64,000 nt of DNA from Picochlorum sp. SENEW3 (Eukaryota): NCBI GenBank assembly GCA_034226945.1, contig CP120462.1, positions 434,001 through 498,000 on the forward strand, read 5' to 3'. Of this stretch, positions 38,723 through 64,000 are shown piece by piece. The first letter of the stretch is position 1. Each line of letters begins with the position of its first letter. A model generated the notes under the pieces. The model was not told where the DNA came from. It was given only the letters and a program-made list of their open reading frames with translations, and did no database searches. The position numbers and the translations under genes were made by a program.

Positions 38723-41700
38723 CTACTCTGCAGGAATGACAGATTCAAGAGCTCTCGCTGTTCGAACCTCGAAATACACTTTGCGCCGTTCAAAATATAT
38801 TCCACAGTCCAGTGAGGTACATGAAATGTCTCCATGGGCTCCACCAGAAGATCCACCGCATGCTGTGCAGATTCGAGAAAGATGGACATACTGTCTTTCT
38901 GTTCTGTTCAGGCGTGATGGCAAGACTGTGGCGACAAGCTGAGGATCTCCCTCACACGTGGTACACAATGGTTTGTTGATCATCGTCAGCCCATCGCAGC
39001 AAACACAATGCCTTGAAAGATAGAATCGATCTATGGTGTGACCTCGGGGCACCGGTGTATCCTTGGTGCTGAGCACTGGGAGGGTTGACAGAGGTCTCTT
39101 GTGAGGCAAATGGCGAAATACTTTGGGCATCTGAGCGTACCATGCTCGTACATCTGCGCCAATGAGAGATAAAAATCGCTCAAGAGCAGGTATGATTTGC
39201 TTTGTAATGTAATAGACTGCGTGTAATCTCAACTGCCCTCCACTCTCAACAAGGTTTTCTGGAGGCACCACCATGTCAATCAGTCTGGCGCCCGGTTCTC
39301 CGTGCACAACGACGTAAGGAATGCGTTCTCCAAATCTCGGTTCTGCTCTTGGGTCGGCTGCCATTGCTTTGGTCGCGATCAACGCGGCAGGAGGGATGGA
39401 GGATGCTGATCCTCGATATGTTCCTAGGCGGACTTCTTTGGCAAAAATAAAGTCAAGGATTGATACTCGGCCCGAGATGATCCGTTTGAACTGTCTCTCC
39501 ACATATCGTCTCACAGAAGAAATGTCTGCGGATGTGAATAGAATTCGAAGTGCCCGTTCCATGATTTTCACCACTGCTGGGCAACTGTCTCTCCTGACTG
39601 TTTCTATTCCTTTGGCATCAAAGTCAAAGGTTTTCTGGTCTCGAGACTCGTACATAGCGCCTACATACCTTTTCTTTGACAGAAGAAAGCAAGGATGATA
39701 GACTTTTTCCAGTTTTAGAAGAACTGGGTCAGGGTTCATGGATGTGATGGTTCTTGCAATCTCCTGACCAATGTCGTGTGCCTGGGGAACGCTTCGTCCT
39801 GGGAGGCGAACAAATATGCTATCTGTGTCACCATATATAACATCAGCATTCCATGTTGGATGGTTCTTTATGAACCTGATTGTTGCCTCTAAAGTCTCCC
39901 TGCCACTCTGAACGATCGCATCAGCAAGCTCTGCCATGGGCATGCGGCCAGAGAAGCCAGCAGCAGTGTATCCATATGTCACATTGGCGATCAATTTGAG
40001 GGCAAATTGTTTTGCATTCAGGGATCTCAATAATGCTTTTGATCCTCCTTTTGCATTTTTCATCGCCCGTTTTATCATGATGCGGGTCTCTAGAATCTCC
40101 CGTAGCAATCTAGGAAGTACTCCTTTTCTGTGAGATGGAGGGACAAAAGCAACTCCATTGGGAGCAATGATCAGATCATCTACGTTGAGTCCTAGATCCA
40201 TTAGAGATGATTCCAGTTTGAATTTTTCATGGCACCCTAATCGCTGCTGCTCTGTATCCTCTGAGAAGATATGACTTGGCCTCCCAAGGCATGTTGAAAA
40301 ACACAGGTTGTATGCAATTATCATGGAGGGATAGAGTGACTGAAAATCTAATACGCAGACAGGGTCCTCGTACATGCCACTCTCAGGCTCCATGACAAGA
40401 GGTAGTGCTTCCATGGCGGGTTGTCGAGCGACCTGTTCATTGTTGGGTGAAAGGACGATGAAGTTTTGAGAATGCGCAAGTCTGACCATCATGCTTTCCA
40501 CTCTATACTGACTACCCCTTGATATCACTGAAAAAAAATCAATACCAAATGTTCTAGCAAGTTCAGAAGTTCTTCCGATAAAATCTAATTGTTCAATCAT
40601 TTGTAGTGAGAGCCTTCCACAAAGGACAAGGTGTGACAAGCACCTCCATCTTGTAGTATGATTCTCAAACCAATCATGCATGATGCTCTTTTTCACCCTT
40701 GGCACCCTAATTCTCAATATGGATGCGACACAATTCTGAAATGAATAGGAAGATAATTTAACTTCCGTTCGAATGATTCTCCACAAGTTTAAAACAATAC
40801 GACCAGGCACGTGCAAGCCAGAGTCATGCTGCCATCCATACTGATCCTCCTCCTTCATTTCCTTCAAATCATCTTTGACACCATAGATCCTCGAAATATC
40901 ACCAAGTAAAGAAGAATTTTCGAATGCTACACATGCTCTATCTGCCAAATATCCCAGAGACTCCTTTTGGATCTCGAAACCCATCAGAATATCTGGATCC
41001 ACATAATGTATGAAAGCAACAAATGCATCAAACAATTCTTTTTCAGAAGACACGTGGTCGAATTCAACCCCTGACATTCCATCAACGTTGTTCAATACAG
41101 TACTTTTTTCCATGTCGCTTCCCGCACAACTTAAAATTCTGGTGTAATACTGGCCAGAATGCACAATGTCTTCATCATGCATTACTGAGATGATTACTGC
41201 TTTTACTGCGTCATGCATTGGATCAGGAAGCAGCCCTGGACGTGTTTCTGCATGTACTTCAATGCAGGCAATGGTCAAACCCTCACCTTTGCCATCTGAA
41301 GTGTCATACTGGAACCCCATTTGTGACTCTGCAGTGCGACCTTGGTAGAATCCAGATGGTGGAGATATTTGGCTGATTGACTGCTTACGCTTCTGCCTCT
41401 TTGCGCACATTGGCGATGTTGTCTTCTTTGCACCTCTCATTACAGTGGGCGATTCTTGGACTCTTGGATTGTTATAGAAGGCGTCAACTTCGTCATACTT
41501 GGGGGAAGCTGGCCGTATCAAATCATCAGTCTCGTTGGGCAAGTGTCCATCAGATTGAGGCTGGTACAATTCTTCTGGTGTCGTGTCAAAATTATTCATA
41601 TTCTGCTTATAGCTTGATATCATTGGAGTTCCCATCAGAGAGCTCTGGGAGGTATGGGACGCTGCTGTTGTGGGGAGAAGCCTCCCTGTGTTGGGGTCCA

Positions 41701-51780: not shown

Positions 51781-52908
51781 ATGGGGTGTGGATCATCGTC
51801 GTTGAAATCGACTCCCGGAGAGGGCGGGGGTGTCAGTAAGGTTTCCGACCCTTCTTCTGACAACCTAAAACATGGAGGGGTTCTGGGTGGTATGCCGATT
51901 CGGTTGGGTCGATTGTCCATCCAGGGTTCATTTAATCAGTATGAGAGTATGTCAGAGGCGAAGAAGGATGATACGCAGGGGCACGGAACTGTCACGGCTG
52001 GGAATATTACAGTAACGTATGCCTATTTGACTCAACGAGGGCATTATCCTGATCAGCCGAATAAAGCGAATCAAGATGCTGTTATGGTGCGGACGGAATT
52101 TGGGAAGAAGCCTGACAGGCATTTGTTTGCTGTATTTGATGGTCATGGAGAGACTGGAGCAGAGTGTGCTTTTTTCTGCAAGTCAAAGCTGCCTGGGATG
52201 ATCCTGTCACAGGGGGAGCGGGCGTTGGAGAGCGATCCAGAGAAGAGTGTTCATCAGGCGTTGTTACAGGTGAATGAAGAGCTGCATAAAAGTTTGTTTG
52301 ATGATAGTTTGAGTGGGACAACAGCATGTGTGTTGCTGTTGGATGGGAAGAGGTTGGTCGTGTCGAATGTGGGGGATTCAAGGGCTGTGCTTGCGACCAA
52401 GGATGAAAATGGAAAATTGATTGCGGTGGATTTGTCGTCTGATCAGACGCCGTTTCGAGATGATGAGGTGGAGAGGGTCAAAGCATGTGGGGCGAGGGTG
52501 TTGACTCTGGATCAGATGGATGGGTTGAAGGATCCCACGAAAAAGTGCTGGACGGAGGAGAGTGAGTGTGATGGGGATCCACCGAGGTTGTGGGTGAAGA
52601 ATGGGTTTTACCCAGGGACAGCGTTTACCAGGAGTCTTGGTGATAGTTTAGCAGAGAAGATTGGTGTGTCGGCAGAAGCGGAGCACACGACACATGAGAT
52701 ACAGGGTCAGAAGGATGCATTTGTTATTCTCGCGACGGATGGTGTGTGGGAGTTTATAACATCACAGAGGGCTGTTGATATTGTGGCGAAGCATACATCC
52801 ATGCACGAAGCTGCGCAGGAGCTTGCGTCTGAATCATATAGATTGTGGTTGCAGAATGAGAGGAGAACTGATGATATCACTGCTACAATCTTACAATTTA
52901 GCTGTTAA
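51781..52908 (+). CDS. Protein phosphatase 2C, N-myristoylation/palmitoylation-type N-terminus
   Basis: MGCGSS, NQD, VFDGHG, NVGDSRA, FTRSLGD, ATDGVWE and DDIT. Confidence 0.93.
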   Translation: MGCGSSSLKSTPGEGGGVSKVSDPSSDNLKHGGVLGGMPIRLGRLSIQGSFNQYESMSEAKKDDTQGHGTVTAGNITVTYAYLTQRGHYPDQPNKANQDAVMVRTEFGKKPDRHLFAVFDGHGETGAECAFFCKSKLPGMILSQGERALESDPEKSVHQALLQVNEELHKSLFDDSLSGTTACVLLLDGKRLVVSNVGDSRAVLATKDENGKLIAVDLSSDQTPFRDDEVERVKACGARVLTLDQMDGLKDPTKKCWTEESECDGDPPRLWVKNGFYPGTAFTRSLGDSLAEKIGVSAEAEHTTHEIQGQKDAFVILATDGVWEFITSQRAVDIVAKHTSMHEAAQELASESYRLWLQNERRTDDITATILQFSC

Positions 52909-52940
52909 TAATACACTCTTTGTATAAATATATGTATTGG

Positions 52941-54047
52941 TTAGGTTTTTGTGACGTCATCAGTCCCCAGTGCCTTGCTGATGTCTTCCGAGGTGGCAAA
53001 GCCACCAGCTTCTTGTATCATTGAGGGCAAAAATGGCTTGATTTCTTTCAATAAATTAAGTACGGTTTGTTCTGCGACACCGCATACCGCACAAATGTCT
53101 TGCAGGGTTGGACTCTTTTTGTCTGCAGATGCCTTGTTCAACATGGACATGACCCACATGATTGTGCCGGCAATAGTGATGGGACTCTTCCCATGCCACT
53201 TCTGATCCACCTGGCCTTCTCCTTGAGGCTTGATGACATTAGCGAGCGCAATGGCTGCCATCATATCAGCGTTACTAAATCCGACAGTGGACATGAAACG
53301 TCGAAGGAAGTTCTCTGGATGAATAGACACCACTTCAGATCGAAATTCACCTTGCTCCTTGAGCTTCAAGTCTGCAACAATCGCCTTGTAAATCCTCCCA
53401 ATATCTTTCACTCGTGCTTGTGGAACATACGCTCGAATCTCTTTAAACGTCCGCGGATATCCCATCTGGCGGCAGGCCAAAAACACAACAGCAGCAACCA
53501 CGGCACTCTGTGCCCTGGTTTTCACAGCCTTTGATTTCTCCAACCCATCACGATAATACTCATTCGCCTGATGTCGAACCACATCTGGAAGCTTCATTGA
53601 ACTACATACTCTAGATATATCTCTAAATGCCATGACAAGAGTCTTGTCATCCCCACTCGTGTCGGTCCTAGCTTGCATCCGTTGCAAATTATTTGCAAGA
53701 CCTTTGTCGACACCCTTCCCCCCAGAAATCATCGTACTTAATCCTCCGTCTTTCAATAATGCATTCATAGGACCACCGACTCGATTGGGGTCCGCTCCTT
53801 CCTTATCTTTGTCAGAAAATGTCCTCCATTCAGAACGTTCATCGATCACGTGTGACTCGGCCACTCTCCCACAGCTACGGCATATTAAATCACCACATGC
53901 ATGGTCTTCTACAAAATCAGATTCTCCACAGTCTTCACAGCGCTGCTCATATTTTAAACGAAGTGCTACGTTAAATGCTGAACCATGCTGCTGCTGTTTG
54001 TCTCCACCCTGTGGTCCCTTACTACTATCATTTGGGTAGGACGACAT
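52941..54047 (-). CDS. TFIIB: Transcription initiation factor IIB
   Basis: Zn ribbon CEDC..CRSCG, IDERSEWRTF B-reader, DPNRVGG and cyclin-fold repeats. Confidence 0.93.
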   Translation of the reverse strand: MSSYPNDSSKGPQGGDKQQQHGSAFNVALRLKYEQRCEDCGESDFVEDHACGDLICRSCGRVAESHVIDERSEWRTFSDKDKEGADPNRVGGPMNALLKDGGLSTMISGGKGVDKGLANNLQRMQARTDTSGDDKTLVMAFRDISRVCSSMKLPDVVRHQANEYYRDGLEKSKAVKTRAQSAVVAAVVFLACRQMGYPRTFKEIRAYVPQARVKDIGRIYKAIVADLKLKEQGEFRSEVVSIHPENFLRRFMSTVGFSNADMMAAIALANVIKPQGEGQVDQKWHGKSPITIAGTIMWVMSMLNKASADKKSPTLQDICAVCGVAEQTVLNLLKEIKPFLPSMIQEAGGFATSEDISKALGTDDVTKT

Positions 54048-54263
54048 GGTCTACTTATTATTTTTTATTACTTAATTACTACTATTCATGCATTCGGGCT
54101 TGCTTTTGTAGTATTATTGTATCGTTGCAAAATGTGTCATATTAAGGAGAATCAGTTTTTGAACAGGATTGGTGACGATAACGCTGATATAGGCAGCTTC
54201 AGTAGCATAATGTACTACATATATATGACATATTAATGATATAGATAGGGACAAAAGGAAAAA

Positions 54264-55137
54264 ATGGAGCAACAGTATGAGGATGAACAAAGCATGGAGA
54301 TTGAGGCTCTCCAGTCCATTTTTATGGATGATTTGAGGGGTACGCGTATCTGCTCATATGAATATCTGTGAATATGAAATGATTGATTACTCAATGCATG
54401 CAGTTGTCTCCGAGGGATCTCGACCAGTGACTTGGAACTGCTGCTCTGCGTCGAGTGCTTCACAGGCCAGCAGTGACGTATATGCTGTGGAGGTATGGCC
54501 TCAGTCTGATGATGGGATGAAGGATGAGAATGCAGAGTTTGGGGTGGAGTTTATCTTTGCTCATACGCCGTCGTATCCGGACGAAGCACCCTTGGTTCAT
54601 GTTAGTAGTATTCGTGGGTTGAGTAAGCAACATATGGAGGAGTGTGCGAGGCAGGTGTGTGATGCTATAGAGGAGAATATGGGCATGTCGATGATGTATA
54701 CATTGGTATCTGTGATCCAAGAGTGGTTGAATGGGCTTGATATGGAGAAGCAGGAAGCGTCATTGGCTGATGATCCAGCGGTGCTGGAAAAGAGGAGAAG
54801 GGAGGAGGAAGAGGCTAGGATTGCTGCTCTCCGGGCGCATGGGCATCAGGTTACTCCAGAAGCCTTCGCGTCGTGGAAAAAAGCATTTGAAGATGAGATG
54901 CGGGAGAAGGCTGATGGATTCAAAAGGGAGAAGAAGGGTACGTATGGTGAGGTGACGGGGAAGCAGTGGTTCTTGCAACAGCAGGCAAAGGGTGAGGATG
55001 TGGATGAGGCGCCAAGGTCTGAGGATGATGAAGACTTTTCAATAATCGACGAAGAGGAGGATATCTTTGACGACGATGATGACGATGATTTGTTGGATCA
55101 ATTGGAGGATCAGCTGCAGGTGGATGATAATGAATGA
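54264..55137 (+). CDS. RWD-domain protein RWDD1/Gir2 (intron ~54340-54403)
   Basis: EQSMEIEALQSIF, YPDEAP, G..VTPEAFASWK..F and TGKQWF, followed by an acidic tail. Confidence 0.88.
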
Positions 55138-55624: not shown

Positions 55625-57433
55625 ATGCAATACTCACCATTGTGCTCTCATGTGCTGTTGCTAGCACTTGGGTGTGTGGTACTCTCAGGTGCTGCTGCTG
55701 CCGACGAGGCTTCACACTGCCGCGTGTCGCCATCAGCGCAGCACGGTAACTGTGGAATGCCATATCGTTTGAGCAACTTTCAGGGTAACTTTGAATGCCC
55801 TATGGATGTCCGTGTTGGGAAGCCACACAATCTGCAGCAGTTGGGTGAGATTCTCAACGAGTTTGACAAGGTCAAAGCAGTGGGAAACGGACACTCTTTC
55901 AACAAGGAATTCCTTTGCGCTGGGAATGGAACGGATTCTATCAATATTGTCATGACGGAGCTTGATGATACACGAAAATATATCTTGGCACCACCGTCGC
56001 CAGATCTTTGGCTTGACATGGAGATTCCTGATGACTTTCCAATTCAGGTTGATGAGCAAGCAATGACTGTTAATATCAGTGCTGGTATTACGCAACGTAT
56101 TCTGATCGATTATTTATCTGATTATGTGCATTGGGATGAGCCAAAAGGATGGACCTTGCCAGCCTTCAGTTGGTTCATTGACCAAACCATGGCAGGGGCT
56201 GTGGCAACAGGTACCCATGGGAGCTCTATGAGATATGGATCTCTCTCCTCTCAAATCCTTGCCATGGATATGATGCTTGCAAACGGAACAATCATCACCA
56301 TTACTCCAGAAAACAAGCACCTCTGGAATGCTGCTGGAGTTCACGTCGGTCAGCTTGGAATCATCACTAGTTTGCTCATGAGAATTGTTCCACAACAAGC
56401 TGTGGAAAAGACTGTGTACGAGGGTGACTTCCAGGGTGAATTCTCCGACTACGTACAAAAGGTGTCCAGTGACTACAAGCAAGCGCTTGAGATTGGTGAT
56501 GTCGATTTGATCAAGGAAATCCTGTTTGAACTCGATGAAACAGAAGCATTTTGGTTTGTTCCAGAAAACATTGCTTGGGTGGTCCGGTTCAGCCATTTGA
56601 AACGACAGCCTTGGTTTGTGAAAGAAAACATTGCACCAGAGGAGATTCCTCAGGTCGAGGCATTTGACGCCAACCCAGATATGTTTGTCTTCCCTCAAAA
56701 TGAACGGTATCAGCCATTAGAAGGAGTTCCAGCCATGGCAGCCGGAGACAGCAAAATGTGGTCCAGATTTTTCCGAAATGCCCTCGAGACCTATGCAACT
56801 GAAGGAACATTCGAATCCAGAAAAGCATATCTATCCATGATTGACCAGGGAATGTCCATGCATGCTGGCTTCTCCCCATACAATCAGTTTGAAGTGGCCA
56901 TACCATTGACAAATGTTGCCGAATGTCTCCCTCGCGTGCTCGATGTCGTGTACGGTGACGAAAAACTATATGAAGGATTCCGAACTCCAGGTCTGGTGAG
57001 ATTCACACCAGGAGAATCCTTCTACTTGTCAAATGCACAGGGCGACAAGGGACCACACATGTGGATCAATCTTGAAGATTATGTCACTTTCTCTGACCCG
57101 AATCACACGCCAAATGAGAAATTCTTCAAGGTGATCCGATTATTTGTTGAAGAATGCGATGCTCGTTTACACTGGGGCAAGGCCGGATTCCAAGAAGCCG
57201 TGGATTCCACGGATTACGATGTCGTAGAAAAGTATGGAAACAATTGGTGCTCCTTTGGCTGCGCTGTCCATCAGCTCGATCCCACCAGAAAATTCTCCAG
57301 CATGAACGACACCTTTTGGGAATTCTACGCCAAAACATCTCCAAATGGTCCAACTGCAGAGCTCAGTTCCATCATGGACACATGCTGCTTGAGCAATGGA
57401 CCATTCAATGCAGATGCATGCATCTGTGCATAG
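55625..57433 (+). CDS. FAD-linked sugar-lactone oxidase (L-gulonolactone/D-arabinono-1,4-lactone oxidase family), signal peptide
   Basis: VGNGHSF FAD-His motif, GAVATGTHGS, GQLGII and ARLHWGK. Confidence 0.85.
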   Translation: MQYSPLCSHVLLLALGCVVLSGAAAADEASHCRVSPSAQHGNCGMPYRLSNFQGNFECPMDVRVGKPHNLQQLGEILNEFDKVKAVGNGHSFNKEFLCAGNGTDSINIVMTELDDTRKYILAPPSPDLWLDMEIPDDFPIQVDEQAMTVNISAGITQRILIDYLSDYVHWDEPKGWTLPAFSWFIDQTMAGAVATGTHGSSMRYGSLSSQILAMDMMLANGTIITITPENKHLWNAAGVHVGQLGIITSLLMRIVPQQAVEKTVYEGDFQGEFSDYVQKVSSDYKQALEIGDVDLIKEILFELDETEAFWFVPENIAWVVRFSHLKRQPWFVKENIAPEEIPQVEAFDANPDMFVFPQNERYQPLEGVPAMAAGDSKMWSRFFRNALETYATEGTFESRKAYLSMIDQGMSMHAGFSPYNQFEVAIPLTNVAECLPRVLDVVYGDEKLYEGFRTPGLVRFTPGESFYLSNAQGDKGPHMWINLEDYVTFSDPNHTPNEKFFKVIRLFVEECDARLHWGKAGFQEAVDSTDYDVVEKYGNNWCSFGCAVHQLDPTRKFSSMNDTFWEFYAKTSPNGPTAELSSIMDTCCLSNGPFNADACICA

Positions 57434-57529: not shown

Positions 57530-57865
57530 TTACCGAGAACCACCCAAATTACTCTTCTGTTTCACAGGCACCCCCTTCTTTTGAGGACTCGGCATCCCTG
57601 GTGGCCTCTCCATCATATACACGGGTTTCAATCTCCCCGCATCTTTCCCATCCTGACTTTCCTTCCCTACTCTATTCAACTTTGCAACATTCATTTGCCA
57701 GTCCGCAGAATCAAAATACTGCCCCCCATCCTTTTGCTGTGTTGCAAGCACCATCTTCTTCTTGGGCATCAACCCACCATATTTCCCTTGCCCTCCCGTC
57801 TCCTGCGCTTGTTCCTCATTCTCCTCATCTACTACTTCCTTTCCAATCATTTCATCCCCATGCAT
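57530..57865 (-). CDS. ENSA: Endosulfine/ARPP19 family PP2A-B55 inhibitor
   Basis: KYGGLMPKKK..QYFDSADW, the plant-type endosulfine signature. Confidence 0.88.
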   Translation of the reverse strand: MHGDEMIGKEVVDEENEEQAQETGGQGKYGGLMPKKKMVLATQQKDGGQYFDSADWQMNVAKLNRVGKESQDGKDAGRLKPVYMMERPPGMPSPQKKGVPVKQKSNLGGSR

Positions 57866-58596
57866 CCTCACCCAATATAACAACACGGGCGCCTAAAAAC
57901 AACAATGTCCCTCTCGTTTTCGTGCCCCACACTTCGTCAAGCAACAACACCCTCAACGTCGACTTCACTCTCGCGTTCCGAGTGCACTCTCGGATACTTC
58001 CAACAAATTAAAACTACAACTGCAACCCTATTCAGTAGTATAATCAGCCCCTGATACGTATCTGTGTTCGTATGCGATCACCTCGACACAACAACCCAAT
58101 CGATCTGAGTATATCTTTCATATAGGCTCATACGCACCTTGGCACAACTATTTATCTGAGAACCATTCATAAAACTTGTACAATATTGGCATTCTAGGAC
58201 TCTGTTCGGGTCAATTCTGCATGATCAAAATCATATTTAATGTTCTTATTAACACGACAGGTACCCACCTTCTGGCGTGTCCCATGGATTGCTTCGTAAA
58301 CCCTCGTCCCAATTGGCAGCCAATTAGTTACTTCATATGCTAAATTGATACCTAGATGTCTCAAATTGGAAGATATTGACGCATTTTTGGAGGTCAACTT
58401 GGACAAAGGAACTCCGAATTGGAATCATTCCACGCCTGCATCCAAACGCGTATCTCTGTATTGATGATGAATCTACTATGATAAAGATTCAACCTAGCAG
58501 AGTTGAAGAGCGAGACCGTGCGTGGATGCAGTTGAGAGCGGTTCACAAGAGTTGACACAAGTATCTATATAGTTGGGCAGGCTGTGAGCGACAAGC

Positions 58597-61500
58597 ATGG
58601 ATGGGGAGACGAGGCAGTCGCCAAGAGCAAGTACGAAACATGATGGAGTTGGGTTGGATAGTGGGAAAGAGGTGCTGCTGTCACCGTTTGCGTCTCCAAC
58701 GAAAAAGCACGGGTCACCGAGGATGTCACCCTTGGTGATACCTCCAGTGATTGATGAGGACGTTCAGAGTGGTTCTTCGTCGGCATCGTCTCTCAGTGGA
58801 CGTTATAGACCAAAGCATTATGCTGCGAATATACTGCCACCTATTGCGACTAGTGCGCTGAATGCGCAGCATCAGATGGGGGCTGTGTCTGTGCCAGGGA
58901 ATATGCTCATGTCCCCTGCATCGGCAAGGAAGTCAAAGTTGGATAAGAATTTCTGGCAGGCGAAAAACCATGTGAATAGAGAGTTGGTTTCGTTTCTGAC
59001 AGAGACGACTGCAATCTTGAAGCATGCAGATAAGGAGGATGCTGTGCATTTGGAGAGGGCGCTTGGTGTTGCACAGCGGTGTATTCAAGAGCCTGTGGAG
59101 AGGTTTAAAGAGTCTGTCAAGGATGACGTGGATCAAATTGAAGAGTGGAGGAAAGTGTGTGATTCGACTGTCGGGAAGACATGTTATACCAAGTTGTTGT
59201 TCATGTTGGCACATTGTAGCAGGCTTGTGCTGGGTGTGGAGAATAGTCCAGGTGCAGCAGGTACCCCAGCGTGCTTTCGAGCTGCGCGGAATAAGCGGCA
59301 CAGTAGTGGGGGGAATAGAAGTTCACATGGGAAGAAGAAAGGTATATCAAAGGCTGATGTGAAGCATCAAGGAGGAATGAAGCCATCACTGCGGTCGCCT
59401 GGGAGGAGTAAGAGTTTTCAAGAGTTTAAAAAGGCATGCTCGTCGCCTAGGTCGCGTCTAGGGTCTCAAACAAGTAAATGTCTATCTTCAACGTCGTCTG
59501 TGAAAGAATCGGTGAGGATGCTACAGGGTCTACATTTAGATGAAGGTAGCTCAGGGGGGTCTCCTCGGCAGAGTGTTCATCAATCCATGCCCTCCACTCC
59601 TCCAAGCAGTGCGGCGGCAACATGCTCACCGTCTCCTTTGGGTAGGGATTCTATTGTTGCCACGTTGGAGCAGCAATTTGACGGGCAGGATGAATTGTCC
59701 GGTGGGAGTGGGACTGTGACGCCTCGACCAGCTCGAGAAGTTGATCAGTTTGTGCATTTAACACCCCGGCAAATGCTTCAGAGTAAGGTCAAAAGGAGTG
59801 CCTCTCAAGTTTCTTTAAATGATAGTGATAGTACGAATACACCATCAGGGAATACGGTATCGACACCTTGCACATCCAGTCCCGCAGGAAGACCATCTGT
59901 TGAGTTGGACTTGAAAGGATGCTTGACATGTCATTTGGGATTACTCGAGAGCGAGTTTGAACAGCATTCTGCGATTTGTTCATCTTTGGATGAAGAATAT
60001 TTTCAAAAGGCAGATGCAAAGAATATAGATATGATGATAAATAAATTGGGAGCAGTGGCAGAGGAGAAATTGAACAGCATGAAATGTAGCCTTGCCATGG
60101 AGAGTGTCATGGTTGATATTGTCTCTGCCTCCAGGCAAGCTGTTGCACTGCAGCCAGATCATTCAATTGTACCAGTGAAGCGATGCCGAGAAGTTGCACG
60201 CATGCTGAATGCAGTTGTATCCAATGCTGTTGTGATGGCTATTGAAAGTGACAATGCCATTCAAGCACGCGCACTTGGGTCAAATTTGGCAAAGTTGATT
60301 GTTCTTAAAGCTGAAAATTTGGCATTGAATAGTACTGAAGAAGATGATGACCCCCTTCTCGATTCAATATCGGCGTGGGGATCTGTATGCATGGACGATT
60401 TTGAGATTTTGAAGCCAATCAGCAAGGGAGCATTTGGACGGGTATACTTGGCTCGGAAAAAGGAGTCACAAGACTTGTATGCGGTCAAGGTGATGAGAAA
60501 AGCTGATTTGGTGAGAAAAAATATGGTTGAATCAGCAAGAAATGAACGCAATATTCTCGCGATGGCAAACAACCCTTTTGTCATTAGATTTTACTTTTCA
60601 TTCACATCGAGGGAAAACTTGTATATTGTTATGGAATACGCACCGGGGGGAGATCTGGCATCTTTACTTCGATCTCTTGGTGGCCTCGAAGAAGACATTG
60701 CTCGAAAGTACATGTGCGAGGTTATTTTAGCTCTGGAATATTGTCATGCTCAGGGCATTATTCATAGGGACTTGAAACCAGACAACATTTTAATTTCATC
60801 AGATGGGCATATCAAACTTACAGATTTCGGTCTTTCCTGCTTTGGAGTTATTGATAGAACGGATCCCATGATAGAGCAAGAGTATGAAGCTCACAACAGT
60901 GGCTCTTTGCCATCCTCCCCTGTGAAACGCCATGGTGGCCATGTGCGTAGTGTCTCTGTAGTGGGCCCTTTTGATGGAGCAGCTCCAAGCCCTGTCGGCA
61001 AAGCTGAAATACAAGAACCACGTGCACCATTAAGTGCTAGATTTAGTATTGCTGATCAGAATAAAAAAGCCGTCGGAACCCCTGATTATTTAGCTCCAGA
61101 GCTCTTGTTGGGTATTGGCCACGGTCCAGAGGCTGACTGGTGGAGTCTGGGTGTCATCCTCTTTGAAATGACAGTCGGCGTGCCTCCATTTTCCGCAGCA
61201 TCGCCCGAAGAAATATTTGAAAATATTTTGGAGAGGAACATACATTGGCCGGCAGATGGAATGCTTTCTCCTGAATTGAAAGACCTATTGGAAAGCCTTC
61301 TCTGTTTGGACCAATATTGCCGGCTTGGAAGCAAAGGTGCCATGGATGTCAAAGTACACGCATGGTTTGATGGGATCGACTGGTCCGACCTAGCAAGGGA
61401 AAAGGCTGCCTTTGTTCCTCAGACCTCATGCGACGCAGATACGTCATATTTTGTGGGCAACAAGGATGTGTCAAAAATGTCTCTCACGTTGGATTTGGAA

Positions 61501-62085
61501 AGCGTCAAGTCTTCTGTGAGCAATTCACAGCGACCCTCAGCAGCGCCAAGTCCACTAGCGTCATCCCGAAGCATACGATCACTCATAGAAACTCGATTGG
61601 GAAGCCATCGACGACAAGGGTCGTCATGCAGCCAGCCATTGAGCAATAGAGACATGAGTTTTGATGGATCTGCAGGCCAACCACTCAGTGCAGCAGATGC
61701 AATCATCAAGGGCGCAGCTCAAGCTCTAGAAAGCTACGAAGATGGTTCCGTAAAATATTCGGACATCTATGCAGAGAGCGAGCAAGGATCCATGGATAAC
61801 CAGGTCTATGAAGCACAATATTGGGAGGATTTGGCAATAACAGCATCAGGAAATGCGATGCTCACCGAGCAGAATTTGGAAGCCCTGGAAAAATTGAAAA
61901 AGATACATACAGAATATTTGAGTGATAGGGACACGTCGACTGATAAGGCCACAGAGGCTGAGGCAGTCTGGGCAGAGTTTGATAACCCGCCAGATGTGAA
62001 CAGCATTCGGTCCAGATCAGCAGCTTCGAGTCCTGTCAAACATATTAGAAGTGCATCAACATTCAGCACTCCAAGAAAAAACTAA
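58597..62085 (+). CDS. AGC Ser/Thr kinase of the IRE/MAST/Greatwall-Rim15 group
   Basis: DDFEILKPISKGAFGRV, HRDLKPDN, DFGLS followed by a long insert and GTPDYLAPE; IRE-type N-terminal region and a C2HC-like CLTC..H..C. Confidence 0.92.
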   Translation: MDGETRQSPRASTKHDGVGLDSGKEVLLSPFASPTKKHGSPRMSPLVIPPVIDEDVQSGSSSASSLSGRYRPKHYAANILPPIATSALNAQHQMGAVSVPGNMLMSPASARKSKLDKNFWQAKNHVNRELVSFLTETTAILKHADKEDAVHLERALGVAQRCIQEPVERFKESVKDDVDQIEEWRKVCDSTVGKTCYTKLLFMLAHCSRLVLGVENSPGAAGTPACFRAARNKRHSSGGNRSSHGKKKGISKADVKHQGGMKPSLRSPGRSKSFQEFKKACSSPRSRLGSQTSKCLSSTSSVKESVRMLQGLHLDEGSSGGSPRQSVHQSMPSTPPSSAAATCSPSPLGRDSIVATLEQQFDGQDELSGGSGTVTPRPAREVDQFVHLTPRQMLQSKVKRSASQVSLNDSDSTNTPSGNTVSTPCTSSPAGRPSVELDLKGCLTCHLGLLESEFEQHSAICSSLDEEYFQKADAKNIDMMINKLGAVAEEKLNSMKCSLAMESVMVDIVSASRQAVALQPDHSIVPVKRCREVARMLNAVVSNAVVMAIESDNAIQARALGSNLAKLIVLKAENLALNSTEEDDDPLLDSISAWGSVCMDDFEILKPISKGAFGRVYLARKKESQDLYAVKVMRKADLVRKNMVESARNERNILAMANNPFVIRFYFSFTSRENLYIVMEYAPGGDLASLLRSLGGLEEDIARKYMCEVILALEYCHAQGIIHRDLKPDNILISSDGHIKLTDFGLSCFGVIDRTDPMIEQEYEAHNSGSLPSSPVKRHGGHVRSVSVVGPFDGAAPSPVGKAEIQEPRAPLSARFSIADQNKKAVGTPDYLAPELLLGIGHGPEADWWSLGVILFEMTVGVPPFSAASPEEIFENILERNIHWPADGMLSPELKDLLESLLCLDQYCRLGSKGAMDVKVHAWFDGIDWSDLAREKAAFVPQTSCDADTSYFVGNKDVSKMSLTLDLESVKSSVSNSQRPSAAPSPLASSRSIRSLIETRLGSHRRQGSSCSQPLSNRDMSFDGSAGQPLSAADAIIKGAAQALESYEDGSVKYSDIYAESEQGSMDNQVYEAQYWEDLAITASGNAMLTEQNLEALEKLKKIHTEYLSDRDTSTDKATEAEAVWAEFDNPPDVNSIRSRSAASSPVKHIRSASTFSTPRKN

Positions 62086-62124
62086 AGATGGTGTAACACG
62101 TCAAGATATAGAATATAAACAGTA

Positions 62125-62991
62125 TCAATCATTGGCATCAAAACTCATCACATGACTGTGCTGTTCACTCTTTGCCCCATTCGTTTCTTTACAACCCTTC
62201 TTCTTCGAATCCCTAGCTGGATTATACAAAGGTTTTTCTCTCATCTCATCCTTCTCAGGACAACTATCGTCATCATTATTATTCTCGTCAGTTTTTGTCA
62301 CGTGACCATCCTCATCCCCCTTCCCAGTGGTCGTCGCTCTCGATGTCATATCAAACTGCTGCACACCACCTCCCACAATCACAGGCTCATCAAACTCGTA
62401 CGTTGTATACCTGTCCGGATTCTTCACATAATCCGGCACCGTACTCCTCGCATCTTCAGACTCCTGAGCTCCTGCCCGCTTATGAGGGGGAACATAGGGC
62501 TTCTTCGGCTCTGGAATCCCCGTAAACGACACCTTCTTCTTCCCCATCCTTGACACATCCTCTCCATAAGAATCCTTCTTCTTCAACGCAGAACGAACAG
62601 GCCGCTTCTCCCCAGACGACTGGCGCCACTCCTCCTGCCCCCCCGCTCTTGGTACGACAGGCGACACCCCCTCCGCATCATCAAACTGAAGCGACTGTAC
62701 ATCCATTATATCACTCTCCTCTTCTCTGTCAATTTGAGAACTAAATGCTATACTCGGACGAACCCCTAACGCTGTGTCGAATTCGTCATCCCCCAAATCC
62801 ATGTGAATCCCACCCACAGACGTCCTCCGGCGCCTCTCCTCCTCTTCATCATCACTCGACACATCCCTATGACCATTTCTATATATTGGAGATGACGTAG
62901 GCATCCATTGCTTCTCTGTACCTTCAGGGTCTGATCCAGTCACACCCAAGGAATCAAAAGAGGCACGAGTTCGCCTCTCAAAATCTTCCAT
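62125..62991 (-). CDS. TSSC4-like U5 snRNP chaperone
   Basis: VPDYVKNPDRYTTYEF resembles the TSSC4 signature PDY..NP.KWT.YSL. Confidence 0.7.
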   Translation of the reverse strand: MEDFERRTRASFDSLGVTGSDPEGTEKQWMPTSSPIYRNGHRDVSSDDEEEERRRRTSVGGIHMDLGDDEFDTALGVRPSIAFSSQIDREEESDIMDVQSLQFDDAEGVSPVVPRAGGQEEWRQSSGEKRPVRSALKKKDSYGEDVSRMGKKKVSFTGIPEPKKPYVPPHKRAGAQESEDARSTVPDYVKNPDRYTTYEFDEPVIVGGGVQQFDMTSRATTTGKGDEDGHVTKTDENNNDDDSCPEKDEMREKPLYNPARDSKKKGCKETNGAKSEQHSHVMSFDAND

Positions 62992-63260: not shown

Positions 63261-64000
63261 ATGGAGACGTACGTGGCTTTGTTGCAATCCGTAAAGATGT
63301 GCTGTGGTATTTTTCAAAAATGTTCTGAATCAAATCCTTCAAGTTTTGACTTCTCTTGTGCCCCTCGGGTATCACAGTACACCTTGATATTTTCCAAAGA
63401 ATATAAAGTCTTGATGTGGTCGTGTTTTGCCATGCAGATCGGTCAATTTTGACGAATTCGTCAGAACTGACACGGGTGAGATTTCAAATCTTCAACTCGA
63501 TAAAGACAATGGAACAACGATACAGCGTAAAGAATCATCGTATGTGAACCACGATAGTCGATTTAAGATACAAAAGAGGGATTATGAGCGTCAGTTTGCT
63601 CAATTGTACTTTTCCAGACTGGTCAAGCTGAGGCCTCATGTTGTCAAGGCTGCCACTGCGGCTTGGCCCAATGTGCCATGTGTTCGCGTGCTGGATGTTC
63701 CAGAGGAGAAGGAAGTGTGTATCGTCGGTACCCTGTATAAAGAAATGTCTTTGAAGCCGAGTATTTTGGATGAATATACAAAGGATGTGGGTGCTCAGTT
63801 GGGTGGGAATAGGTTTACGCAGGCTGGAGATGTCTTGGTGCTGGAGGATGAAGGTGGGCGAGTGTCTCTGGTGGGGGATGCGCTTGATGTTGGTACGATG
63901 GTGACTGGAGTTATTGTAGCTGTTAAAGGGACTGTTTCTGAGGAAGGGGATTTCCGGGTGGTGGATGTGTGCTATGCGGGGCATGCCCCACAGTCACGTG
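63261..64000 (+). CDS. POLD2: DNA polymerase delta subunit 2 (5' part; exon 63261-63268, intron, exon 63438 to window end)
   Basis: Manual translation: RDYERQFAQLYFSRL..CIVGTLYKEMSLKPSILDEY..LVLEDEGGRV..VTGVIVAVKG. Confidence 0.9.

Follow-up and report, generated by a model that had tools for sequence, protein, structure and literature searches.

Head-to-head endosulfine and IRE-type kinase genes, adjacent across trebouxiophyte algae, as a possible kinase-substrate module

We describe a gene pair of the green alga Picochlorum sp. SENEW3, found in a stretch of 64,000 nucleotides (contig C11, CP120462.1, positions 434001 to 498000; hereafter, the window) of a genome of 13.85 Mb in 14 contigs (G000). 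A gene for an endosulfine (ENSA/ARPP19/Igo family) and a gene for an AGC kinase of the IRE type stand head to head in the window, and the same two genes are neighbors in other Trebouxiophyceae. Conservation of this adjacency over two algal orders is, judged from sequence records, more than chance. We give about even chances to the reading that the two genes form a linked kinase-substrate module within the Greatwall/MAST-endosulfine-PP2A-B55 pathway. Such a module had been put forward in the original prediction, made from the letters of the window; adjacency in three trebouxiophyte lineages, single copies of both genes and the presence of B55 speak for it, and the geometry of the pair proved ordinary.

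The endosulfine gene (minus strand) and the kinase gene (plus strand) run in opposite directions from start codons separated by 731 bp, within the 1 kb between divergent starts that characterizes a bidirectional pair. This agrees with the predicted arrangement, a YFDSADW endosulfine divergent from an AGC kinase across ~730 bp. The geometry alone is ordinary for this genome and no more than chance: on a crude map of the window frames of at least 200 amino acids (aa), 8 of 27 neighbor pairs are divergent, with gaps of 310 to 4044 bp. In run X4, which is RNA only by guess, one contig covers the kinase side (58337-62212) and cover on the endosulfine side stops at 58022; the gap (58023-58336) is at most a weak hint.

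Adjacency elsewhere was judged indirectly, from accession numbers, locus tags and identical contig sizes in base pairs. In all 11 assemblies whose numbering follows gene position, the two genes carry consecutive numbers: both assemblies of Picochlorum sp. BPE23 (M9435_005996/005997 and M9434_006930/006931), all six of Nannochloris 'desiccata', in both number directions (e.g., Ndes2437B_g01558/g01559 and KSW81_006622/006623), and all three of Trebouxia, namely, C0010 (ABBQ32_001154/001155), C0009 (ABBQ38_003080/003079) and re-annotated C0005 (DBA76741-2/DBA76740). Four further submissions have nonpositional tags, and in three of them (Trebouxia C0005, Trebouxia C0006 and Myrmecia) both genes are on one contig. 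For Myrmecia and Trebouxia C0006 the large shared contig is the only evidence, and it was not counted as adjacency because chromosome-level synteny is common among Trebouxiophyceae (PMC3446292; here and below, statements from the literature refer to the accessible parts of the papers cited). When 69 endosulfine sequences were compared with 65 kinase sequences (members listed for 11 kinase clusters only), 18 of the 69, and 18 of the 30 on contigs of at least 10 kb, shared the exact contig size with a kinase; 0.05 matches were expected after the sizes were shifted. The matched contigs include ones of 12,207, 13,534, 15,237 and 122,648 bp. It is very improbable that these signals are an artefact in which consecutive accessions and equal sizes do not reflect true adjacency. 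Such a reading could draw on the indirect way in which the other genomes were judged and on submissions numbered out of order, such as the original one of Trebouxia C0005 (tags 000073 and 007827); that same genome, however, gave consecutive numbers after ordered re-annotation, the six assemblies of Nannochloris are consistent whichever way the numbers run, and contigs of just 12 to 15 kb carry both genes.

The annotations of Trebouxia C0009 and P. renovo break the kinase up into a number of models, with its 5' part adjoining the endosulfine. The C0009 model beside the endosulfine corresponds to the kinase sequence that precedes the zinc finger, and therefore the 5' end of the kinase faces the endosulfine; the C0009 and P. 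renovo records used do not show the endosulfine strand. One gene model lies between the endosulfine and the split kinase in P. renovo, whose kinase models have altered ends (P0154 and P0155), suggestive of frameshift errors in the P. renovo assembly.

In the kinase tree, carriers of the adjacency occur both in Chlorellales and in Trebouxia, on different branches. The 11 assemblies are not independent: they stand for three lineages and one deep split, and hence for one deep comparison. Inheritance of the adjacency from the ancestor of the trebouxiophyte class is nonetheless very probable. The comparison was made without the endosulfines of Chlorella vulgaris, Micractinium, Parachlorella, Coccomyxa, Prototheca, Symbiochloris, Apatococcus and the volvocines, and Trebouxia C0004 and A1-2 were not judged.

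The kinase is 99% identical to protein P0004 of Picochlorum sp. BPE23. Its closest solved relative is human Greatwall, both by sequence (297 bits, followed by Cbk1 with 243, NDR1 with 236 and PKA with 233) and by fold (Z 23.7, root mean square deviation 5.0, 247 aligned residues, 52% identity; next entry, Z 22.7), and its best named non-algal matches are land-plant IREH1 kinases. In a kinase tree that holds no animal kinase, leaves out P0066, P0071 and L004, and has long-branch joins flagged for L015, L017 and L025, it is nested in the chlorophyte IRE clade with a 100/100 split from NDR. The phylogeny that had been proposed as a check on the prediction thus grouped the kinase with the green IRE kinases. 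It is the only IRE/MAST-type kinase in the genome, in single copy; the next-best kinases, from a reading of their translations, are of the NDR, S6K and phototropin types. It is also the top match in G000 of L025, a kinase-plus-receiver protein taken as fungal Rim15-type (189 bits versus 143 for the next; 102 of 102 candidates scored).

In the predicted model of the kinase, disordered linkers connect an N-terminal four-helix bundle (residues 108-215), a helical domain with the zinc finger (442-580) and the kinase domain. A fold search with the bundle returned generic helical bundles and no specific match, which leaves its likeness to the DUF1908-like helical region reported for plant IRE kinases (PMC12024977) unconfirmed by fold search. 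The finger, C-x2-C-x11-H-x3-C at residues 442-461 (59920-59979), occurs in 111 of 121 homologues, and L025 carries one of identical spacing. The IREH1 domain PF26031 is precomputed on P0004; our own Pfam scan listed it neither for the window kinase nor for a plant IREH1, and an Atlas match for residues 430-590 scored below 0.9 and is a lead only. Three more specific assignments were rejected: Greatwall/MASTL proper, given a DFG-to-APE segment of 93 residues instead of several hundred and an N-terminal region of 600 residues; MAST1-4, as the kinase had no PDZ match at E 0.1 and its tail is mostly disordered in the model; and Rim15/Ppk18/Cek1, as the C-terminal receiver domain that L025 carries was not found in the window kinase. 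Taken together, the evidence places the kinase in the IRE clade, within the MAST/Greatwall/Rim15 group, and not as an orthologue-grade Greatwall.

Like other members of that group, the window kinase is an AGC kinase with an insertion in its activation segment and no phospho-site at APE-9. The DFG-to-APE segment measures 93 residues, compared with 62 in the NDR-type kinase of G000 and 25 to 31 in six other kinases of that genome that could be measured. Both the long insert and the C2HC-like motif had been read correctly from the sequence at the outset. MAST kinases are described as lacking the canonical activation-loop phospho-site (PMC11961639 and PMC12732324). Among homologues, APE-9 is Ser in all 46 plant-range sequences and is not Ser or Thr in 66 of 70 algal-range sequences (a set that includes one plant-like sequence; P0066 gave no match), and the median segment is 59 residues in the former and 112 in the latter. 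Chlorophyte IRE kinases are mostly basic at APE-9 and have the longer insert, and their activation may differ from that of land-plant IRE kinases. The activation segment contains a complete CDK site in 32 of the 70 algal-range and 1 of the 46 plant-range sequences.

The endosulfine is a small protein of 111 aa with the core YFDSADW and a phosphorylatable Ser53, as expected of the FDS(G/A)D family, and it scored 36.8 bits with the Pfam endosulfine family (PF04667; cut-off, 29.8; matched stretch, 57674-57814). The only PDB match of its profile was human ARPP19 (8TTB chain D), a weak one with E 0.19. It is single copy in G000, one copy having been returned by each of the protein, family and pattern searches; two further pattern-search hits do not code for the endosulfine motif. 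Three residues of the S-P-x-K site in its tail, S93, P94 and K96, do not vary among the six sequences of alignment A2; the site is absent from the endosulfines of Nannochloris, Trebouxia and the P. soloecismus cluster. A C-terminal R-R-x-S motif is kept in the Trebouxia and Nannochloris endosulfines and is absent from the window endosulfine, which has S-P-x-K. Two observations on the family lie apart from the gene pair. Some endosulfine-like proteins carry the core motif in two or three copies (P0127, P0130, P0164 and P0170; one is named as Soliformovum), and an endosulfine sequence (L095:53-166) on a 340-bp low-coverage contig filed under a bacterial genome is most likely eukaryotic contamination.

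The pathway in question is well known outside plants. Greatwall phosphorylates the core serine of endosulfine, and phospho-endosulfine inhibits PP2A-B55 (PMC11961639); the worm kinase KIN-4 takes the place of Greatwall, and mouse MAST3 and Mast2 phosphorylate the same serine (PMC11961639 and PMC12732324). In Chlamydomonas, the core serine is phosphorylated in vivo in both endosulfines, with a localization probability of 1, and Cre06.g307200 is additionally phosphorylated at a C-terminal R-R-x-S site (PMC6280106). Because it is the only kinase of its group in G000, the window kinase is the likely writer of the Ser53 phosphate, and, on strong indirect support, we rate it as very likely to be the endosulfine kinase. 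An orthologue of the PP2A-B55 subunit is encoded on contig C2 (397 bits), and all three parts of the pathway are therefore present. In the mechanism that we propose, the IRE-type kinase would phosphorylate Ser53, the phospho-endosulfine would bind and block PP2A-B55, and CDK phosphorylations would persist as a result. The least firm part is that a shared divergent promoter would tie the enzyme to its stoichiometric inhibitor and that the pair would have stayed together since the trebouxiophyte ancestor for that reason. Mitotic entry seems somewhat likelier than nutrient quiescence as the use of the module, because of the CDK-type sites in the activation segment of the kinase and in the endosulfine tail; the Rim15-like finger leaves a nutrient role open alongside the mitotic loop.

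Alternatively, the two proteins might serve different pathways, the IRE kinase acting in polarity, the cytoskeleton or stress and an NDR-type kinase or a CDK acting on the endosulfine, with the linkage a coincidence or a matter of expression needed in the same growth phase. The known phenotypes of plant IRE kinases, root-hair growth and nodulation (PMC3499706), fit such a division, as does a 2025 review according to which plants have no Greatwall and functional homology is undetermined (PMC11829769); the green core, moreover, is DSA and not DSG. We regard it as improbable, however: every MAST-group kinase tested (Greatwall, MAST2, MAST3 and KIN-4) acts on this serine (PMC11961639 and PMC12732324), G000 has no MAST-group kinase other than the one in the window, and the serine is phosphorylated in a green alga (PMC6280106).

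A number of observations weigh against a conserved, co-regulated module. C. reinhardtii has two endosulfines (PMC6280106), and, by gene numbers and published labels, neither adjoins the kinase: Cre06.g307200 is flanked by genes labeled beta-amylase and SMC protein (PMC9019728 and PMC3760859), and Cre10.g435350 by AAP1 and a Vps4 regulator (PMC9106746). The identifier of the C. reinhardtii kinase was not found in the accessible supplements of PMC6280106 and PMC9106746, nor was that of the Ostreococcus tauri endosulfine in those of PMC4143559, PMC8484446 and PMC10540734, where the kinase identifier alone was found (PMC4143559). At the Chlamydomonas phospho-site, rapamycin caused no significant change (treatment -log p, 0.83; PMC6280106), and only 11 of 145 conserved algal neighborhoods are co-expressed in Chlamydomonas (PMC7826186). 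None of the eight angiosperm genomes represented among both the endosulfine and the kinase sequences has the pair on one contig (one or two paralogues of each gene compared). A metagenome scan with the kinase alignment gave at least 80 loci with generic kinase motifs, among which L015, L017, L025 and L053 alone resemble this kinase group, and none of these four holds an endosulfine; L015 (less than 1 kb upstream) and L053 (2 kb long) are uninformative. L017, taken by us to be a prasinophyte-like IRE kinase, has no endosulfine in its 14.6 kb (2.5 kb upstream and 9.7 kb downstream of the kinase), in a search whose controls reached 1e-29. Viral and prokaryotic collections yielded no usable match. 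Closer to home, 12 of the 30 endosulfine sequences on contigs of at least 10 kb have no kinase match (the kinases were not all retrieved), and the activation-segment CDK site is complete in only those 32 of 70 algal-range kinases. Divergent pairs may also survive splits more often than others, and phosphorylation by the kinase, a shared promoter and co-expression are predictions of the module. The synteny check attached to the prediction therefore came out divided, with adjacency in Picochlorum, Nannochloris 'desiccata' and Trebouxia and none in C. reinhardtii or on the one prasinophyte-like contig.

Several of these points would suit a neutral neighborhood, in which the kinase does phosphorylate the endosulfine and the adjacency arose once by chance and has been unbroken since. 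Between Coccomyxa and Chlorella, which have 5,232 orthologues in common, 252 adjacent pairs are conserved (4.8%; PMC3446292), and about one adjacent pair in 20 would accordingly survive such a deep split between trebouxiophyte orders anyway; most conserved neighborhoods are not co-expressed; the 731-bp spacing is ordinary; and the pair is separate in Chlamydomonas, on the prasinophyte-like contig and in angiosperms without known harm. On the other side, we infer that pathway partners would be neighbors at a rate of only some 2 in several thousand per named pair, and the pair passed, at the 5% level, a synteny test that had been set beforehand. A further point comes from a streptophyte. On scaffold s78 (eukprot, P0075 and P0217), the endosulfine (39459-40718, plus strand) and the kinase (84700-92524, minus strand) are 44 kb and 21 models apart. 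We take this data set (SM000078/s78) to be Spirogloea and its genome to be well over 100 Mb. This linkage is one observation whose chance origin is unlikely, and it is possibly a relic of an older linkage. On balance, a neutral neighborhood is a substantial possibility that falls short of probable; that selection has kept the adjacency is modestly favored, and selection on a shared promoter stands at about even.

Set beside known systems, the pair in the window resembles the animal Greatwall/MASTL-ENSA/ARPP19-PP2A-B55 system (PDB 5LOH, 8V5H and 8TTB), which has the nearest solved kinase by sequence and fold, an insertion between DFG and APE, a basic residue at APE-9, the endosulfine core and B55. 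Greatwall differs in its far longer insert (~460 to 550 residues from DFG to APE versus 93; PMC12024977 and PMC11961639), in having no counterpart of the 600-residue N-terminal region with the helical bundle and zinc finger, and in the DSG core of its substrate, which is DSA in the window. The fungal Rim15/Ppk18/Cek1-Igo1/2-PP2A-Cdc55 system shares the exact finger spacing, and its putative representative L025 has the window kinase as its best match in G000; unlike Rim15, the window kinase has no receiver domain, and no endosulfine occurs in the 12.9 kb of L025. To our knowledge, the Greatwall and endosulfine genes of animals are unlinked, as are the Rim15 and Igo genes of yeast. MAST1-4 and worm KIN-4 are alike in their shorter insert, in the missing canonical activation-loop site and in the phosphorylation of endosulfine by those kinases; they differ in that the window kinase has a zinc finger and no PDZ domain and its DUF1908 likeness was not confirmed by the fold search. 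The land-plant kinases IRE, IREH1, IRE3 and IRE4 share the PF26031 domain, the zinc finger and 43 to 55% identity over the searched region, and they differ in the Ser at APE-9 (46/46), the median segment of 59 and the lack of linkage in eight angiosperm genomes; no endosulfine role of these kinases was found in the literature searched. Finally, the survey of conserved green-algal neighborhoods by Foflonker and Blaby-Haas (PMC7826186) likewise inferred function from conserved proximity; its main rule requires two algal classes, its examples are metabolic and not signaling, and the endosulfine-kinase pair was not found among the entries listed in its accessible text and supplement.

The Greatwall-endosulfine pathway is already known. 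A link between IRE kinases and endosulfine, and the linkage of their genes, were not found in the literature searched, which held few subscription papers, and the gene linkage is new in that sense; PMC11829769 and PMC12732324, which mention both IREH1 and endosulfine, do not test such a link. Endosulfines are retained in plants and green algae, yet a 2025 review states that plants have no Greatwall and that the role of plant MAST-like kinases is undetermined (PMC11829769). Homology had already made the IRE kinases obvious candidates for an endosulfine kinase; conserved adjacency adds independent evidence of another kind, and it points to a green-lineage version of the cell-division switch of animals and yeast. 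Were the promoter shared, this would be an uncommon eukaryotic case in which a kinase and its substrate have stayed together as a unit over algal orders. Picochlorum also offers a clean test system, with a single kinase of this type, a single endosulfine and a B55 gene in 13.85 Mb and without the paralogue redundancy of Arabidopsis. A bolder proposal, which we hold as tentative and on present evidence rather doubtful, is that the ancestor of green plants carried a MAST-type kinase and an endosulfine as a linked, co-regulated cassette, now head to head in Trebouxiophyceae, a 44-kb relic in Spirogloea, and broken in Chlamydomonas, prasinophytes and flowering plants; the IRE kinases would then be the missing Greatwall of plants and algae. 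If true, the ancestral cassette would be an operon-like kinase-substrate signaling pair in a eukaryote.

Table 1. Positions of the gene pair and its parts in the window
Feature	Position	Strand	Basis
Endosulfine (ENSA/ARPP19/Igo family) coding sequence, 111 aa, one exon	57530..57865	-	Protein match and Pfam
S-P-x-K CDK-type site (Ser93), endosulfine tail	57578..57589	-	Motif and alignment
Ser53 of the FDSAD core, predicted Greatwall-type phospho-site	57707..57709	-	Aligns with the modified ARPP19 residue in 8TTB
Divergent intergenic region, 731 bp, 43.6% G+C, candidate shared promoter and both 5' leaders	57866..58596	.	Start codons
IRE/IREH1-type AGC kinase, MAST/Greatwall/Rim15 group, 1162 aa, one open frame	58597..62085	+	Sequence, tree and fold
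N-terminal four-helix bundle, residues 108-215, in the place of the DUF1908-like region of plant IRE kinases	58918..59241	+	Predicted model, predicted local distance difference test score (pLDDT) >90
C2HC zinc finger (59920-59979) and following helical domain, IREH1 domain PF26031	59920..60336	+	Motif, model and precomputed annotation of P0004
Kinase domain and AGC tail, catalytic motifs intact	60388..61467	+	Sequence and fold comparison
Activation segment, 93 residues; Lys at APE-9, no canonical phospho-site; S-P-V-K CDK-type site at 60916	60823..61101	+	Motif comparison

A FAD-binding, arabinonolactone-oxidase-like gene (55625-57433, plus strand) ends 96 bp from the endosulfine stop, and a frame on the minus strand (62125-62991) ends 39 bp from the kinase stop and has a weak TSSC4 match of 19.2 bits, below the 27-bit cut-off. 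Farther out (51781-55137 and 63415-64000) are genes for a PP2C phosphatase, TFIIB, an RWD-domain protein and the small subunit of DNA polymerase delta, all ordinary neighbors. Elsewhere in the genome, near-identical 20-base matches 170 or 340 bp apart occur near the starts of contigs (C1:1852-11403 and C6:38405-38764) and are probably a subtelomeric tandem repeat.

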